Of a stretch of DNA of 64,000 nt, positions 24,665 through 49,286 are shown in pieces. The stretch covers positions 1 to 64,000 of IMG/VR virus record IMGVR_UViG_3300045012_000053; one strand, written 5' to 3'. Under the pieces are notes generated by a model. That model saw nothing but the letters and a program-made list of their open reading frames with translations, was not told the origin of the DNA and did not search any database. Each line of letters begins with the position of its first letter. The stretch's first letter is position 1. The stretch comes from a virus. The position numbers were made by a program, and so were the translations under genes.

Positions 24665-24670
24665 GTTCCG

Positions 24671-24699
24671 ATGATCTCACCCGTTCAGTTTATTGTCAA
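24671..24699 (-). promoter_or_regulatory. Early promoter (leaderless geometry)
   Basis: TTGACA-17-GATCAT, AGTAC upstream. Confidence 0.7.
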
Positions 24700-24874
24700 T
24701 AGTACTTTCGGTTGGTACTCGCAGATTGGCATCGATGTTCGCGGTGAGCCGGGCGATGGAATTGTCGACACACCAGCGAACTAGGGCCGCGAGCGGCTGA
24801 TTGGAACGCTGGGACAGCGCGTCGAGCGCGGCCAGCTGCTCCGCGGTGAACCGGATGCGTGTCGCGATCTTCAT
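24677..24874 (-). CDS. Ribbon-helix-helix (CopG-like) DNA-binding protein
   Basis: TRIRFTAEQLAALDALSQRSNQPLAALVRWCVD. Confidence 0.75.
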   Translation of the reverse strand: MKIATRIRFTAEQLAALDALSQRSNQPLAALVRWCVDNSIARLTANIDANLRVPTESTIDNKLNG

Positions 24875-24880
24875 AAGAGC

Positions 24881-24909
24881 ATGCTAGCACAACCGGGCAC
24901 GGTTGTCAA
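24881..24909 (-). promoter_or_regulatory. Promoter of the RHH gene, with a repeat unit in its spacer
   Basis: TTGACA-17-TAGCAT; spacer is the imperfect palindrome ACAACCGTGCCCGGTTGT. Confidence 0.7.
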
Positions 24910-25337
24910 GTGGAATCTTGCGGTGTAAGCGCGCGGAACAGTGTTTTGGGGGAACGCGTAACACCGATGTGCAAACCGGGCACGCTTTTGCACACTCAGG
25001 CATTCTATAACCAAATTCTATCGCATACCCTTGGTTATAGAATTTTGGCACGTAATGTGATGAAAACAAAGGACATCATAAATTCTATAACCAAAAATAG
25101 GGGGGTCAGCAGAGAGAGAAGGGTGACAACCGGGCACGCTTTTCACTGACAACCGGGCACGCTTTGCACACGATCAGATGCAAACCGGGCACGCTTTGCA
25201 AAAGCCAGTTGTCGAAAAAACAGTGTTTTTTGCAACTGACATTACGTATCAGAGAATAGATTGTAAATATAACATAACAAAGGACTTAGTAAAATGTAAC
25301 AAAATTACCCAATGAAAGACTGCGCAAACCGGGCACG
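24891..25337 (+). repeat. Six direct repeats AACCGGGCACG(CTTT), iteron-like
   Basis: Copies at 24891, 24974, 25128, 25151, 25183, 25327. Confidence 0.9.
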
Positions 25338-25475
25338 CTTTTCACGCTCGCTTGTGCTTTCTCTCTCTACGACGATAGGCATTTTTGGTTATAGCATTTT
25401 GTAAGATCAATCTAATCAGTAAGTTAGGAGCGAAAATTCTATAACCATGCTTTGGCGTTAGCATTGGCTATAGAA
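25003..25475. repeat. TTCTATAACCA motif in both orientations
   Basis: 25003, 25083, 25437 forward; 25032, about 25386 and about 25465 inverted. Confidence 0.8.
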
Positions 25476-26316
25476 TCCTGTGACAGGCCGAGATCAGGCA
25501 AGATTTGCTGCCCAAATATCGGCACAAGAGCTAAGTCGTTTATAATCAACAGATGCGAAAAACAGCTTGGTTCGATGCCACTCCTCGTGCTCCTTTTGCC
25601 CACTTTCGAGCGATCTATCGGGTGACAGTTCATTGAGAACTAGCCCAAATTAAAATCCCGTGATCGCTGATAAGTCGCACGATATCAATAACTTGCAGAT
25701 GATGTCACGTCTGATCTGTCGACGCGTGATTGCCAGAAAATTCTTAGACGAGAATTTCTATCGCGCAAGTCCTGTGTTTTCAACGATTTGTGATCGTGGC
25801 AACGAAATTGCTCCCCCAGCAAGCCGATTGCCAAACTCAAAAGCCTTTAGAATGAGCAACTTAGTAGCAAACCAGCGAGTTGTGGATTAATAGAGCATTA
25901 AACCACAGCGCCTCGGGCAACGATTGGCAACGCGCAACGATCTGACGTGTTGAGCCGTCAGCGAATCGAAACCGAAACGTTAAGTGCTTGCGAATCAATG
26001 AGATAGTCTTTGGTTGTGATCTTGCTCCCCCAGCAATTCGGGGACCAAACGTAGGACCCGCCGCCTGCCGGGAGTCGTGGTCGCCCCAAGGGGCCTCGCG
26101 AGGGGCGCGGACGTTTACGTGGCAACCACGCGCGCACTACCCCCGCCGTCACGCCGGGTCGCACCCGCCAGCCGTACCCGGTCATTTATCCGGACACGCT
26201 GACCGGAAACAAAGGACTTAGCCGCCTACTATAAGCGGCGCGTGGGAAAGATCGTGTGACAGATCGGATTTCCATAAGTTTTACTTATAACCAATCCCGG
26301 CGCGAGCCGGACAAGG

Positions 26317-27216
26317 ATGCACCCAATGAAAGTGAACAAACAGGTTTCGGACCCGCGCACCACTCTGGCCGCACTGCTCGACAAGATTCAGAGCCGCCTC
26401 ATCCACACCGCTGATAAGACCCGTCAGAACTCCGACGAGATCGCGGCGCTCCGCGACGAGACCCGATTAAAGGTCGGGACGTTGCAGCGACAAGTGGGCG
26501 AGAAGACTGGAAGCATCGAGACTTCCATCGAGACGCTGGAACACCAAGCGGTCACAGCGGACAAGAAGCTGACCGAACGCGTGGACGCAATCAACGAGTT
26601 GCGCATCGACATCCAGTCTCGTTTGGACCAACACATTAGAGAATCGGTCGACAAGGAGGCGAAGCAGACCCTCCGCGATCAGTCGAACGTTCAATCTCTC
26701 ACGAATCTTCGCGACTCAGTGCAGAAGGCCTTCAATCAGGTGAAGGACGACGTCGCAAGTCTATTGAAGACCATCCAGCGCTTGAACGAGCGCGTCGGTC
26801 AAGTCGAGAGTCAGAACCTGTCTCTCGCCAGCGCAGTCAGTTTGTTGCAGAACCGCATGGACTCCCCGGCACCAGCACCGCAGATGCCGTCCGACCACGT
26901 TTGGATTAACCGCAAGCTGTCGGGCGTTTACGACACCACCACGGATTTGGAAGCGCGTCTTCAAAAGCTGGAAGCTGGGAAGGAAGTGAAGCAGCCAGCA
27001 GGTCGCGCGCCTCGCACGGAAGTCGTCGACGGGCAAACGCTTGTCGTATACGCGAAGGCCCCGATCACGGTATCGGACCCGGCGGACGAATTTCCTATCG
27101 TCGCGCAAGTGTACCGCGTGGTCGCTGATCGCGTCGGTCCCACGCTGAGTTTGATTCCAATCAGTTCTCCCGTTCGCATCACGCAGAAGGAAGCGCGAGA
27201 GGCCGGACTCAAGTGA
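26317..27216 (+). CDS. Coiled-coil hypothetical protein
   Basis: Long heptad-rich helix; first plus-strand gene. Confidence 0.75.
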   Translation: MHPMKVNKQVSDPRTTLAALLDKIQSRLIHTADKTRQNSDEIAALRDETRLKVGTLQRQVGEKTGSIETSIETLEHQAVTADKKLTERVDAINELRIDIQSRLDQHIRESVDKEAKQTLRDQSNVQSLTNLRDSVQKAFNQVKDDVASLLKTIQRLNERVGQVESQNLSLASAVSLLQNRMDSPAPAPQMPSDHVWINRKLSGVYDTTTDLEARLQKLEAGKEVKQPAGRAPRTEVVDGQTLVVYAKAPITVSDPADEFPIVAQVYRVVADRVGPTLSLIPISSPVRITQKEAREAGLK

Positions 27217-27488
27217 ACCGCCGCAAGTTCCTTCAATGGATGGGGGTGGGTACTGCGGTAGCCGCAGTCGCCCCAAGCCTACTCTCCGCGATGGAACCCG
27301 TTGCCACACCAGCAGCCTACTCCACGTACGTGATGGGGCAGGATGCATTTATCGCCGGGTATGTGGATTACGCTAATTTTTCTGATTTCGCGATATCAGC
27401 CGCGATAGATGAGTGCGTATCGAAGGCAGCGGAAGAGCTGGCACACACTCACGCGCGCCGCATCAGCTATCTTTGTAGGACGGCGTGA
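27213..27488 (+). CDS. Twin-arginine-signal protein containing major-capsid-like segments
   Basis: MNRRKFL + hydrophobic stretch; 16/24 identity to residues 95-118 of the capsid protein at 48261. Confidence 0.75.
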   Translation: MNRRKFLQWMGVGTAVAAVAPSLLSAMEPVATPAAYSTYVMGQDAFIAGYVDYANFSDFAISAAIDECVSKAAEELAHTHARRISYLCRTA

Positions 27489-42053: not shown

Positions 42054-44357
42054 GTGGCACTTACCGACGCACAGAGACAGGCAAATAGCAGAGCAAGAAA
42101 GAAGGGACTACCTGAACCTTACAGCGCAGCAGAATCGAAGGCACAAGCGGAGGCGCACGCGGCAAAGGAATCAAGACTCGTAGAACTGTTGGAAGAAGTT
42201 GCGGCCCACGACAGAGAAGGAAAGAGATACAAGAGCGAGGCCCGCAGCTATACGAAGTTGGTGCGTCTGTATTACGGTCAACCTGAGAATGGAGATGCCG
42301 ATGACGATGAGACCAGCGACGGCAAGACCGCCAAAAAGCCGAAAGGCCCGAAGCGTCCCAACCCATCAGAGACTCGTATACGAATTCAAAACTCCGACGC
42401 TGCTCCCTTGGAGCCAGTTAAGGGTAAATCCCGCAAGCGCGCAATCGAAGACATCACCTACGAAGTAGATGATATCGTCGGTTTCTGGCGCTGGCTCGAT
42501 CTGCGAGATCGCGCGCGAAAAGATTTGTATTGGCTCTGCCGACTACTCGGGCTGGGCGTGTACCGCGACGTGCACCAGATCACCTGCGACCAGTTCGTGC
42601 AGAAGAACTTCGGCGGACCTTGGCTGAATCGGGACGGCACGGTAGATCGTGAACGCACCCCGCTTGAGCCGATGTACTTTGAAGGCTACACGCTGGACGA
42701 TTTTCACGAGATGATCGATGCGCAAGAGCGTTTTGATGCGCAAGGTCGCTCGACAAAAGAAATGATGCTGCTCGACTCTCGTGGCTTTTACAAGTCAACG
42801 ATTGACGGAGTAGACTCGGTTCAATGGCTGCTGAACTGCCCTGATATCCGCGTGCTCATCATCACTGGTGAGTACAAGCTGGCGCTGTCGTTCATGCTTG
42901 AAATCAAGGGCTACTTCTTTGCAGCGGAAGGCCAAGACTTTACCTCGTTCCAGCTATTGTTTCCCGAGTACGCGCTGTACGGCGTGGATGGGACTTCGAA
43001 GGAACCGCTATTCTCTCCCGCTCGTATCCTGACACAACGTCAAGGCTCGATCTGGGTGAACTCAATCGTTGCGAACGTATCCGGTTGGCACTGCGACATC
43101 AAGAAGGGTGACGATGTTGTCACCAACGCGAACTCGAACACGGAAGACACGAAAGAGAAGCTAAAGAAAGATTACAACGGCACCGATGACTTGCTCGACC
43201 CGCACGGGTTTAGCGATCACATAGGCACCCGTTACTTCACCGACGACTGGTACGGCACGCGTCTCACGCCTCAAGACGGAGAGAGCGAGATCGCGCCGAT
43301 CAAGTACCACTGTCGCGGATGCTGGGAAGTTAGACCGGAATACGCAGAAGTTCCGATCATGCGCCTCACCGAAGAGATGGTGAAGCTGACGTTCCCGCAG
43401 AAGTGGACCTTTGCGAAGTTGCACCGTTTGCTCTTAAAGAAGGGCGAGCGCGACTTCCGCAACCAGCAGCTCAACGAGCCTACGGACGCCGCAGAAGACA
43501 GCGGCTTCAAGGTCAGCTTCACGGAGCATGACTTACGCGCGCACAGCTATCAGCGCGAGGCCGCGCCGAAGGCTGGAGACGTTTACATTACGTGGGACTG
43601 GGCGCTCTCGGACAAGAAGACATCAGACTACTCGGTCGGCGTCGTGGCTCGTTTGTACAAGAACGACATGAACGAGTGGGCGTTCGTAATTCTCGAAGTC
43701 ATATACGACAAGTGGAAGTACTCGGAACTCGCTTTTCAGATCGTGGCGCTCTCGAAGCGCTGGGGTCCGAAGGTCACCATGATCGAAGCGTCCAACGCTT
43801 TCGATCTTTTGAGAGACGAGATCACACGAGTCGGCCAGCGTCAAGGCTACCAGCCGTACATATACTGGAAGCAGCCATCGCGGGAAGAGAATGCGAAACG
43901 AAACCGAATTAAATCGTTGGAAATCCTTTTAGCGGAGCACCGTTTGCACTTCGTGCTCGGCCCGTGGATTGACGAAACGTTCAAACAGTTCACCCAGTAC
44001 ACAGGCGAGAAGAAGAACAAAGGCCGCAAGGAAGATATCCCGGACGCCATCTCATACATGACGTATATTCTCCCGGCGGAAGCTCGACCAATCATCGACA
44101 AGATCGACCCGGAAGAAGAGAAGAGACTGGCAGAGGAACGAGACAAGCAGTTTTTGAAAGTGCGCCACTACGAAGCGTACTTTGGACAGAGAGTTAGAAC
44201 GAAAGAAGAAGGCGGAAACCTTCCCGCTCCGACGTGGCGACAGTGGTCGCGTGGAGACTCGGGCGAGGTAAAACCGCCGGAGCCAGAGCCAGAACCGCCA
44301 AAGCCGCAGGACCCGAGAATGAAAATCTTCGGCAATAAAGGGCCTTGGCGCTTGTAA
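42054..44357 (+). CDS. terL: Terminase large subunit
   Basis: SRGFYKST, GWHCDIKKGDD, IGTRYFTDD, TWDWA...DYSV, EDIPDA; precedes portal. Confidence 0.88.
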   Translation: MALTDAQRQANSRARKKGLPEPYSAAESKAQAEAHAAKESRLVELLEEVAAHDREGKRYKSEARSYTKLVRLYYGQPENGDADDDETSDGKTAKKPKGPKRPNPSETRIRIQNSDAAPLEPVKGKSRKRAIEDITYEVDDIVGFWRWLDLRDRARKDLYWLCRLLGLGVYRDVHQITCDQFVQKNFGGPWLNRDGTVDRERTPLEPMYFEGYTLDDFHEMIDAQERFDAQGRSTKEMMLLDSRGFYKSTIDGVDSVQWLLNCPDIRVLIITGEYKLALSFMLEIKGYFFAAEGQDFTSFQLLFPEYALYGVDGTSKEPLFSPARILTQRQGSIWVNSIVANVSGWHCDIKKGDDVVTNANSNTEDTKEKLKKDYNGTDDLLDPHGFSDHIGTRYFTDDWYGTRLTPQDGESEIAPIKYHCRGCWEVRPEYAEVPIMRLTEEMVKLTFPQKWTFAKLHRLLLKKGERDFRNQQLNEPTDAAEDSGFKVSFTEHDLRAHSYQREAAPKAGDVYITWDWALSDKKTSDYSVGVVARLYKNDMNEWAFVILEVIYDKWKYSELAFQIVALSKRWGPKVTMIEASNAFDLLRDEITRVGQRQGYQPYIYWKQPSREENAKRNRIKSLEILLAEHRLHFVLGPWIDETFKQFTQYTGEKKNKGRKEDIPDAISYMTYILPAEARPIIDKIDPEEEKRLAEERDKQFLKVRHYEAYFGQRVRTKEEGGNLPAPTWRQWSRGDSGEVKPPEPEPEPPKPQDPRMKIFGNKGPWRL

Positions 44358-44375
44358 TAATGAGGACATGACAGC

Positions 44376-46487
44376 ATGGCGGACATCGACGTAGCAGTAG
44401 CCAACTTGGAACAGGTGCCAGCAGCTGAGATCACGACGGACAATACCTACGTGGACTCGGAGACTGGGACGATTCAGTTCAATGATACTGCGGCTATCAA
44501 ACTTGTGCTCGACAGCGCGGAGATAGCGGACAATTTCATCAACATTAATCAGTGGGCCAGCGGTTGGACAATGTCCGACTTGCTATACCAGTCGCCGATG
44601 TCTACCAGCGACGGAGGCTCCGGCAGCACAGACGTAGCGAACTCGGCGGTGCCGAAGTTCATGGTCTCGAACCACATCAGTTCGATTGTTCCGAAGATCA
44701 TGGGCGGCATCTTCTACGAAGACCCGTGCTTCCTGCTTCGTCCGGCCCCGAACACAGATCAGGACGTGATCGCCGCGAAGACCGCGCTGTTCACGTTTCA
44801 GCTCAAGGCTATGCGCTTTGAGGAACAGATCGAACTTGGGCTGGAGCAGATGGCGCTGCTTGGCACTGCTATCTGGAAGTGGGGCTACACCGAGTACGAA
44901 AAGACCGAGAAGAAGTACAAGCGCTATGCGCCCAAGGTTAATGTGCCGGATGGTCTAGAGACCGCGCCGATTGACACGCCGGACTCCGACGACTTCGAGA
45001 TCGAGTTCTACAAGAAGACAGTCTCTCACCCGTGGTTGAAGTTCTGCGACATCCGTACAGTCCTAGTGGACCCGGGATGCCGCGTGGGCGACATCCGTAC
45101 AGCCAAGTGGGTTGTGTGGCGCGACTACGCTACTTACGATGATTTGGAAAAGCTTCGCGGGATGGAAGGTTACGAGATTCCTAGCGAGGCAATTCTTCGC
45201 TCGATGTTTGCGAAGGCCACTTCTCCGGGACCTGACAACATTACGATGACCATCCCGGAAGGGATGATGGGTTATTTGCAGCACTCGAAGCCGAGAAGCT
45301 ACAAGACTTCGGCGGACCCAAACAAGGCTCCGCTGGAAGTGTTGGAGTATTGGGACAACGACAAGGTTATCGTTGTGCTCATCTACAACGGCCACAACAT
45401 TTTGATTCGCAACGAAGCCAATCCGTTTGGAAAGATTCCTTTCTACTCGGCAAACTGGCGCAACATTCCTGACTCGTTCTACGGGCAGGGACTGGGCTTG
45501 CTAATCGGTAGCGAGCAGATCGTAGAGCAGGGTGTAACCAACCTCGCGCTCGACCTGCTGGCGTACTGCTTGCAGCCTGTCGCGCTTCGTAAGAAGGGCT
45601 TCAATGCACCGACACAGAACACGCGATGGGAGCAGGGCGGCATCATCGACGTCGAAGAGGACGTTGACAAGGCCTTCAAGTTCCTGCAAATGCCTCCTGT
45701 GCCTGCGGAAGCGTTCAGCTTCATCCAGCAGTCACAGAGCGCGGGCGCATCCACGTCGGGCGCGAACGAGCAGGTGGTGCAGGGCGCGGGACACGCGGGT
45801 ATCAGCACGACGGGTATGAGAAGCGGCACGGGCGCGGCGGCTGTTATTCAAGCCAACGCATCTCGTCTCGACGGTCCTACCGGACGTTTCGTGCGCCAAG
45901 TTTTCGAACCGTGGCTCTTTCAGATGGATGATCTCGACAACGACCTGTTGCCGACTAGCGTCATCAAGGATATCCTCGGCGAGAAGATGGGCAACGACTT
46001 CAAGGTCGACCACATCGAAATGCGTAACGCGAAGGTCGAATATGAAGTGCTCGCGGGCAGCAGCCTAGGTGCCAAGAAAGAAATGGCACAGGCTCTTCCG
46101 ATCATGATTCAGTTGTTGAACAACCCGACGTTCACTGCAAACGCGAACGACGCCGGATATCAGTTCGACGCGGTCGCCATCTTCCAAGCGTTCGTGGACG
46201 CGGCTGGTTGGAAGTTCAGCCAGAAGTTCTTACGCGAGATGACACCGGACGAGAAGAAGAAGCACGACGCGAACAGCCCAGCGGCTATCGCGGCGGCGCA
46301 GCAGGCATCAGCGCAGAAGATGCAGCAGGACAAGTTCCAACAGGAACAGGTTCTGGAAAACCAGAAGCAGCTCGGCAAGGCGGGTAACGAAGCCTTCCGC
46401 TCTTCTATCGAAAAGTCAACCGCCCCGCCGTTGCTGGGCACAGGCCCGGACCAGACACAAGGGTTCGGCGCAACAGACTCTCTATAA
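44376..46487 (+). CDS. Portal protein
   Basis: 703 aa after terminase; GTAIWKWGY, NPFGKIPF, SFYGQG; Gln-rich C-terminus. Confidence 0.85.
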   Translation: MADIDVAVANLEQVPAAEITTDNTYVDSETGTIQFNDTAAIKLVLDSAEIADNFININQWASGWTMSDLLYQSPMSTSDGGSGSTDVANSAVPKFMVSNHISSIVPKIMGGIFYEDPCFLLRPAPNTDQDVIAAKTALFTFQLKAMRFEEQIELGLEQMALLGTAIWKWGYTEYEKTEKKYKRYAPKVNVPDGLETAPIDTPDSDDFEIEFYKKTVSHPWLKFCDIRTVLVDPGCRVGDIRTAKWVVWRDYATYDDLEKLRGMEGYEIPSEAILRSMFAKATSPGPDNITMTIPEGMMGYLQHSKPRSYKTSADPNKAPLEVLEYWDNDKVIVVLIYNGHNILIRNEANPFGKIPFYSANWRNIPDSFYGQGLGLLIGSEQIVEQGVTNLALDLLAYCLQPVALRKKGFNAPTQNTRWEQGGIIDVEEDVDKAFKFLQMPPVPAEAFSFIQQSQSAGASTSGANEQVVQGAGHAGISTTGMRSGTGAAAVIQANASRLDGPTGRFVRQVFEPWLFQMDDLDNDLLPTSVIKDILGEKMGNDFKVDHIEMRNAKVEYEVLAGSSLGAKKEMAQALPIMIQLLNNPTFTANANDAGYQFDAVAIFQAFVDAAGWKFSQKFLREMTPDEKKKHDANSPAAIAAAQQASAQKMQQDKFQQEQVLENQKQLGKAGNEAFRSSIEKSTAPPLLGTGPDQTQGFGATDSL

Positions 46488-48260: not shown

Positions 48261-49286
48261 ATGAGCGGACCAAATCCCTCAGCATCAAACGTAGCAAACG
48301 TCCTGACAGCACAGGCAATCATTTTCGACAAGGAACTGATTCCGAACTTGAAGGGCAACACCAACGCATTCGTTGGCGCGGCAGAACGTCGTGTTCAGGG
48401 CCTTCACATGGGCGTGAACCGTACGTTCTTCCAGTACAACACACTTTCGGGTGACGTTGTGCAGAACTCCGATGGTACCGTGGGCAACCCGGAAACCATC
48501 ACTCAGTTGTCGTCTCCGGCACAGATCGGAGAATGGAACAACTACAGCAACTTCTCATCGTTCGCTATCGCAGCGGCGATTGACGAGCTTGTTGGCAACA
48601 GCGCAGTCGAACTTGGCTACCAAGCCGGGCAGTCGATCAGCGAGTTGTACAGCGCAGTTGCAGACAGCGCATCTGGTGTGGACGCAAACGTCAACCAGTC
48701 GTCGTTGCTTGCATCTCCGTACACCATTGACTTGGGCACCATCCGTGAATTGAAGCAGCAGCTTGTTTCAAAGAACGTATTGCCTTGCAAGCGTGGCATG
48801 TTCTTGGGCGCAATCAGCCCGAACGTGTTGGGTGACATCTACAACGCAACGACAGTGAACAACTCTATCGTTGACTTGTGGAAGTACGAAAACATGGAGA
48901 AGTTTGATGCAATGGCAGGCAGCGACCAGAACAAGGTCATTGTCCTACCGGGCACCAACATCGGCTTCATGCAGACCCCGTTCGTAACCACAACGGCCAA
49001 CTACAACGGCTCGGGTAAGATCGGATACCGCACATATGTTTTTGGCAATTATGCCATGATCGGTGTCTGGCTTCAAGTGCCGGGAGACACTGATCTTGAT
49101 GAAGGCGATTGGAAGACCATCGATTGCCGCGTCGTGACAGATGCCCCTGCATCCAGCTTTGACCCTGTCTCAACAATTGGTGGGTGGTGCAGCTATAAGT
49201 TCCACCAGACAGTTACGTTGCCACCAGCAACTGGCGCGAATACCCAGCGTATTCGCTACATTGACTCGGTTCCGGCAATTCAGTAA
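48261..49286 (+). CDS. Major capsid protein (HK97 fold, N4-gp56-like)
   Basis: 341 aa; FAIAAAIDE, AISPNVLGDI, YRTYVFG, FDP..IGGWCSYK; synteny. Confidence 0.85.
   Translation: MSGPNPSASNVANVLTAQAIIFDKELIPNLKGNTNAFVGAAERRVQGLHMGVNRTFFQYNTLSGDVVQNSDGTVGNPETITQLSSPAQIGEWNNYSNFSSFAIAAAIDELVGNSAVELGYQAGQSISELYSAVADSASGVDANVNQSSLLASPYTIDLGTIRELKQQLVSKNVLPCKRGMFLGAISPNVLGDIYNATTVNNSIVDLWKYENMEKFDAMAGSDQNKVIVLPGTNIGFMQTPFVTTTANYNGSGKIGYRTYVFGNYAMIGVWLQVPGDTDLDEGDWKTIDCRVVTDAPASSFDPVSTIGGWCSYKFHQTVTLPPATGANTQRIRYIDSVPAIQ

Follow-up and report, generated by a model that had tools for sequence, protein, structure and literature searches.

A phage mini-protein that joins a Tat-type leader to pieces of the major capsid protein, with a possible role as a capsid mimic

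Analysis of the first 64 kb (hereafter, the window) of a complete 101,360-bp soil phage record with direct terminal repeats revealed a small gene for a protein in which a Tat-type leader precedes a body assembled from two pieces of the major capsid protein (MCP) encoded by the same phage (Table 1). That this ORF is a real gene under selection is hardly in doubt, and the derivation of the body from the MCP is firmer still, bordering on certainty. Taken as a whole, the explanation favoured here, a functional accessory gene whose product carries a Tat-type leader and an MCP-derived body and would act as a mimic of the capsid, appears an even call.

Table 1. Coordinates of the mini-protein gene, its parts, their sources and related features (positions in the window unless a locus is given).
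Feature	Position	Strand	Remarks
Promoter-like site	25519..25546	+	Head of the rightward small-ORF block with the cassette; consensus match only
Coiled-coil protein gene, 299 aa	26317..27216	+	Directly upstream of the mini-protein gene; cassette in five related genomes
GAGAGG, Shine-Dalgarno-like	27197..27202	+	10 nt 5′ of the GTG; read from sequence
Mini-protein gene	27213..27488	+	91 aa, GTG start; 12 close and at least 97 clustered full-length homologues
Tat-type leader, residues 1–24	27213..27284	+	R-R-x-F-L-[K/Q], then uncharged Gly/Ala/Val-rich stretch to Pro21; Pfam TAT_signal; modelled helix 3–24
Variable linker, residues 25–35	27285..27317	+	Length and sequence vary in the family; highest pN (0.54)
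Strand-like segment, residues 36–50	27318..27362	+	Homologous to MCP 256–270, out of order; scoring-matrix scan
Helix segment, residues 45–91	27345..27485	+	Homologous and collinear to MCP 87–140; model helices 56–62 and 67–90
Terminase large subunit	42054–44357		Upstream of the MCP gene
Portal	44376–46487		Upstream of the MCP gene
MCP gene, 341 aa	48261..49286	+	Source of both segments; downstream of terminase, portal and scaffold-like genes
MCP residues 83–140	48507..48680	+	End of the presumed E-loop return strand and long helix, copied into the mini-protein
MCP residues 256–270	49026..49070	+	Strand, placed ahead of the helix in the mini-protein
Terminase large subunit, 725 aa	L021:330–2504	+	phrog_5989, E 2e-10
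Leader protein, 229 aa	L021:2588–3274	+	Unrelated viral contig, between terminase and portal-like gene; twin contig L068

The mini-protein gene and its Tat-type leader

The preliminary description of this DNA had pointed out a 91-aa ORF with a Tat-like N-terminus, and both are borne out. The GTG start codon is shared with the stop of the upstream coiled-coil gene (GTGA), giving a 4-nt overlap, and the TGA stop codon shares 1 nt with the ATG of the next ORF at position 27488. The gene call in the database corresponds to a 65-aa product starting at Met27 (position 27291) and misses the leader; since an M-N-R-R leader opens every homologue of the mini-protein, we consider the GTG to be the true start. 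Gene-call trouble at the GTG is also seen in the relatives P0003, P0018 and P0062, some of which are fused to, or continue from, the upstream coiled-coil gene; within the family, the GTG codon often leads to a mis-called start. The only PHROGs match to the mini-protein was phrog_14111, a family without a functional name (E 6.5e-4), no functional name was obtained from NCBIfam, PHROGs or PADLOC, the PADLOC-DB profiles yielded no defence or anti-defence match, and a protein-atlas search with the mini-protein gave no usable match.

The leader scores above the cut-off of the Pfam TAT_signal model (PF10518; 23.0–24.3 bits vs. 22.7), or 21.9 bits if the GTG is read as valine, and slightly below that of TIGR01409 (16.4 vs. 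16.7). Its twin-arginine motif, N-R-R-K-F-L-Q, conforms to the (S/T)-R-R-x-F-L-K consensus, and no other ORF of the whole 101-kb genome matches TAT_signal. Across the family, the arginine pair is present in all 76 members, F6 in 72, L7 in 65 and a lysine or arginine in 47, and the uncharged, Gly/Ala/Val-rich stretch that follows has a median length of 19 residues and a mean Kyte-Doolittle value of 1.53. At E ≤ 0.01, the TAT_signal model is matched by 37/76 members and TIGR01409 by 44/76; through the leader, 25/76 also match TIGR02811 and 2/76 the Rieske PetC anchor model (PF25471). The host Tat system is predicted, with fair confidence, to use this leader.

An A-x-A signal-peptidase site was sought, and the family alignment contains no conserved small-x-small column; in many members, a proline directly follows the candidate cleavage position. 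Because a conserved signal-peptidase site is lacking, the leader could be cleaved off as a signal or stay in place as an anchor, and the signal-anchor reading appears equally possible. The AlphaFold model of the mini-protein consists of a helix at residues 3–24, coil at 25–55 and helices at 56–62 and 67–90, with pLDDT above 90 at residues 70–90.

The capsid-derived body and its source

The similarity between the mini-protein and the MCP is highly significant. By BLASTP, residues 41–87 align without gaps to MCP residues 83–129 (21/47 identical, E 1e-9), and an all-against-all comparison within the genome recovered this pair as the only one joining a small ORF to a structural protein. An hhalign comparison of the 76-member family profile with a 28-member MCP profile yielded a probability of 99.3% and an E-value of 1.5e-20 over 60 columns. 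The family profile also matches the MCPs of phage Tunturi_3 and of eight related genomes (E 1e-14 to 1e-18), and two of the 76 family members match TIGR04387 (capsid_maj_N4). The residue counts given in the preliminary description, 6/10 identical between YSTYVMGQDA and capsid 256–265 and 16/24 for a second match to capsid 95–118, are correct, and so, to the nearest kilobase, is the 21 kb said to separate the two genes (20.8 kb).

The second, shorter segment is only weakly similar to its counterpart in pairwise comparison (mini-protein 36–50 vs. MCP 256–270, E 0.069) and was assessed with a scoring matrix of 15 columns derived from the 18 family members in which the motif is present. When the 101-kb genome was scored at 130,390 six-frame positions, MCP 256–270 was the top non-self hit with 24.1 bits, against 7.2 bits for the next; a 7-mer version of the matrix gave 18.1 bits vs. 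11.0, and the collinear alternative, MCP 78–92, scored below 0. Since the matrix scan places MCP 256–270 so far ahead, the reversed order of the segments, as claimed in the preliminary description, is real in this protein; it does not extend to the family at large, in which the second MCP piece is kept by only about 20 of the 76 members, or about a quarter.

The helix and strand-like segments overlap at a common motif, A-x-I-G-x-[W/Y], and the two source sites in the MCP echo each other at precisely this motif: A-Q-I-G-E-W at residues 87–92 (48519–48536) and A-M-I-G-V-W at residues 265–270 (49053–49070). The pieces join exactly on A-x-I-G-x-W, which hints at recombination across duplicated copies of the capsid gene. 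In nucleotide sequence, the mini-protein and MCP copies are only ~55% identical, which implies that the copying event is old.

The body does not amount to a capsid protein. A complete HK97 fold comprises the N-arm, the E-loop and the P and A domains in ~300 aa or more, whereas the mini-protein holds only the equivalents of MCP 87–140 and 256–270, and its model consists of helices and coil without a domain. A complex prediction for the MCP with mini-protein residues 28–91, run without controls, scored 0.00 and speaks neither for nor against an interaction.

In one subfamily, the linker preceding the body carries a four-Cys insertion (L007:2465–2800; P0013, P0035, P0064, P0066 and P0075), the Cys pairs of which flank a conserved S-F-W-[E/D]-G core; by its sequence, this insertion could bind metal or form disulfides.

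The source protein is encoded after the terminase and portal genes and a gene for a 433-aa scaffold-like protein. Along 99% of its length, it shares 36% identity with the protein annotated as major head protein in Tunturiibacter phage Tunturi_3 (PP885686; E 2e-43), a 97.6-kb podovirus with an Acidobacteriota host (PMC11924767). The MCP of Tunturi_3 retains the motif, although this phage has no mini-protein gene. For the source protein, the closest protein-atlas clusters are those of the Phage_capsid_3/4 and N4-gp56 families. A PDB profile search produced weak matches to the capsid chains 9d82 and 9e99 (E 0.1–0.2), confined to the N-terminus, and further PDB searches produced none. Since the AlphaFold model of the MCP is poor (pLDDT 30.8), the placement of the copied pieces within an HK97 fold is presumptive. 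Residues R257, T258, Y259 and G262, in the strand that was copied, are invariant among MCPs. The MCP is unusually conserved, with 75%–98% identity among loci L011–L080 and a non-synonymous divergence (pN) of 0.09, and a cut-off of E ≤ 1e-5 retrieves 266 database clusters for it; the small genes of the early block in these phages are only 30%–60% identical.

Family, constraint and genomic distribution

The mini-protein has 12 close homologues (43%–73% identity), and an exhaustive search extended the family to at least 97 clusters (50% identity, E ≤ 1e-3), nearly all of 75–135 aa and matching over their full length. The combination of a Tat leader with a capsid fragment, sought in relatives, is thus found throughout a sizeable family. 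No relative was detected when prokaryote genome contigs were scanned with the single mini-protein, and no longer proteins with the mini-protein leader were found at E ≤ 0.01. A FastTree phylogeny of the shared 44-aa segment (90 sequences) shows little resolution, with the MCP types scattered among the mini-proteins, and is compatible with one origin as well as with several.

Although the mean column identity of the family is 28%, six residues (Y53, F56, S57, D66, A73 and L76) are conserved in 90% or more of its members, and each of these residues matches one kept in at least 27 of the 28 MCPs. Across eight genomes with DNA, pN is lowest in the leader (0.22), intermediate in the capsid-like part (0.40) and highest in the linker (0.54). 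Set against the MCPs of these genomes, the mini-protein body changes ~4 times as fast at non-synonymous sites (pN 0.39 vs. 0.09); these comparisons are given as differences in pN rather than as dN/dS, because synonymous sites are saturated (pS 0.71). The invariant arginine pair, the conserved residues that match the capsid and the low pN of the leader argue that the gene is no decaying duplicate. A decaying copy of the capsid gene, or chance resemblance in a spurious ORF, might be read from the shortness of the ORF and from the truncated database gene call, but both are extremely improbable given the size of the family, in which relatives are intact and full-length, the conservation, the profile match, the matrix scan and the recurrence of start/stop overlaps with the upstream gene in related genomes; we regard this reading as refuted. 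Accordingly, neither of the outcomes that were to count against the preliminary description, namely similarity short of significance and homologues disrupted in frame and free of constraint, was observed.

The same figures bear on the possibility that the gene encodes an envelope or lysis-timing protein, an antiholin- or spanin-like helix anchored N-in/C-out, for which capsid sequence served as mere raw material. The modelled N-terminal hydrophobic helix and C-terminal amphipathic helix would suit such a protein, as would the leader being the most constrained part. However, the best-kept residues of the otherwise divergent body are precisely those that are invariant in the MCP, which is unexpected if ancestry is irrelevant, and no lysis genes were recognized beside the mini-protein gene, so that this function has a small, if appreciable, probability.

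In five related IMG/VR genomes, the mini-protein gene is immediately preceded by a coiled-coil gene homologous to that of the window; the 4-nt start/stop overlap is present in four of the five, and the small ORFs downstream are also homologous in four of those genomes. The coiled-coil gene was considered as a possible copy of the scaffold gene, which was ruled out as the two share no similarity. Every mini-protein-bearing genome that was checked contains exactly two matches to the family profile, the mini-protein and its own MCP. By contrast, four relatives that are 99%–100% complete and carry the same MCP have neither the mini-protein gene nor the coiled-coil gene, nor does any of their ORFs match TAT_signal; in one of these four, the matching site is occupied by other ORFs. 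The mini-protein gene is therefore accessory, and its absence from these four phages argues against a core role in assembly. This weighs, in particular, on the notion of a morphogenesis factor that would tether to the membrane and there nucleate or organize head assembly. Such a factor would be in keeping with homology to a portion of the MCP in contact with its other parts and with the coupling to a coiled-coil protein gene, but the gene lies far from the head genes and the predicted topology places the body outside the cytoplasm; we consider this role very unlikely.

The region 24670–25550 lies between the replication genes, which run leftward, and the rightward small-ORF block with the cassette, and contains promoter-like sites in both directions, four of which match 10/12 consensus positions. 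Near the mini-protein gene of a related phage, a 61-aa ORF without a leader (L004:3532–3717) includes a stretch of 34 aa that matches the portal protein with 41% identity (E 4e-6 in a comparison with the ORF set of that genome).

Other bodies behind the same leader, possible functions and known systems

A scan of IMG/VR showed that a near-identical leader is also carried by proteins with other bodies. In the 229-aa protein encoded by L021, the body is a copy of part of the terminase of that contig, with 41% identity to terminase residues 482–639 over 158 aa (E 1e-35) and with an Asp of the terminase motif substituted. Three further proteins of 125–151 aa with the same leader (L018:4176–4550, L026:10001–10435 and L010:1761–2195) share a common body of no traced origin, for which no counterpart was detected in the respective loci or in the record of L026, which is 64% complete; those of L018 and L026 are encoded directly 3′ of terminase large-subunit genes. 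The L026 terminase (L026:4207–8238), a large subunit of 1,344 aa, contains an intein that carries a LAGLIDADG domain. The terminase copy placed behind the same leader in L021 is easier to reconcile with a general mimic or decoy than with an anchor specific to the capsid.

The body, a strand like that of MCP 256–270 joined directly to the long helix of MCP 93–140, keeps the residues that never vary in the MCP and hence probably engages whatever those residues engage, as expected of a mimic. We envisage that the Tat receptor of the host would engage the leader and that the body would then be exported, anchored in the membrane in the N-in/C-out orientation or kept at the translocon, where it may mimic a very conserved surface of the capsid and compete for a factor that recognizes this element of the MCP. 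For this factor, a capsid-sensing protein of the host is the favoured candidate, in which case the mini-protein would be a decoy or antagonist; a phage partner would be a less likely target. Because the gene is dispensable for the capsid and the same leader is found on a terminase copy, competition for a factor able to recognize such conserved morphogenesis proteins, for example a host sensor, is favoured over a part in assembly. Several points run against this scheme: the leader lacks a conserved cleavage site in the family, the second MCP piece is confined to about a quarter of the members, the capsid helix is buried, leaving no obvious partner in the periplasm for a mimic, and binding of a decoy might equally well trigger the sensor. 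Mimicry or decoy activity as the function of the mini-protein is a tentative proposal, possible but doubtful.

A membrane-directed leader on a small accessory protein encoded in a variable block of small ORFs would also be compatible with superinfection exclusion or another form of interference with rivals, whereby the fragment, from a position in the membrane or periplasm, would stop related phages from entering or assembling. It would be a dominant-negative piece that export keeps apart from assembly of the phage's own capsids. With MCPs so similar across the clade, one fragment would fit many rivals, and the terminase-domain copy of L021 could work likewise. Yet, capsid assembly is cytoplasmic, whereas the body is predicted to be periplasmic, as a single hydrophobic stretch comes after a charged N-terminus; moreover, a fragment that poisons such a conserved MCP would poison that of its own phage too, and no similarity to known exclusion proteins was found in PHROGs, Pfam or PADLOC. 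We consider exclusion unlikely, though it ranks with the envelope or lysis role as a main rival to the mimic. The wider form of the decoy proposal holds that unrelated phages Tat-tag copies of their own conserved morphogenesis proteins, the capsid protein here and the terminase in L021, as decoys that capture sensors and are held at, or carried through, the translocon. Its probability is rather low; if it is true, Tat-tagged decoys that hold or export sensors would represent a new principle of anti-defence.

If the mimic works as proposed, the mini-proteins would form a new class of phage accessory proteins, in which pieces of the phage's own virion are sent to the export pathway of the host. 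The family is large and unannotated, and the MCP that was copied hardly varies within an abundant clade of soil phages, relatives of the Acidobacteriota phage. Literature searches on phage proteins combining Tat leaders with capsid fragments, on capsid decoys and on Tat in connection with superinfection exclusion found nothing relevant, and as far as the literature was searched, this would be the first described use of the Tat route by a phage for such a purpose.

Among known proteins, the mini-protein resembles Tat signal peptides and small anchored Tat substrates in its R-R-x-F-L-K-like motif, a mildly hydrophobic stretch of ~19 residues and small size. It differs from the substrates described by PF10518, TIGR01409, TIGR02811 (the formate-dehydrogenase-region target) and PF25471 in being encoded by a phage and in carrying capsid pieces instead of a redox subunit, and from cleaved substrates in having no conserved cleavage site, its export being a prediction. 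A 2026 review of the Tat system includes no phage-encoded substrate of this kind (PMC13673990). In Tat ‘hitchhiker’ export, one subunit bears the signal for a bound partner, as in PaoABC (PMC4273604; PMC10924467), and, by analogy only, the small leader-bearing mini-protein may carry a partner or hold it at the translocon. With the MCPs of the N4-gp56 type (HK97 fold), both its own and that of Tunturi_3, the mini-protein shares ~55 homologous residues, including those invariant in the MCP, but its body corresponds to ~16% of the MCP, in two permuted pieces, and is unable to form the MCP fold.

CapRel, Lit and Avs are bacterial pattern-recognition defences that sense conserved phage morphogenesis proteins; the Lit protease senses the Gol peptide of T4 gp23 and CapRel senses the capsid protein. 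The mini-protein parallels the Gol peptide/Lit and CapRel cases in that a short conserved stretch of an MCP stands as a recognizable unit of its own. The targets of Lit and CapRel, however, are parts of the full capsid protein and have no export leader, whereas the mini-protein is the product of a separate phage gene.
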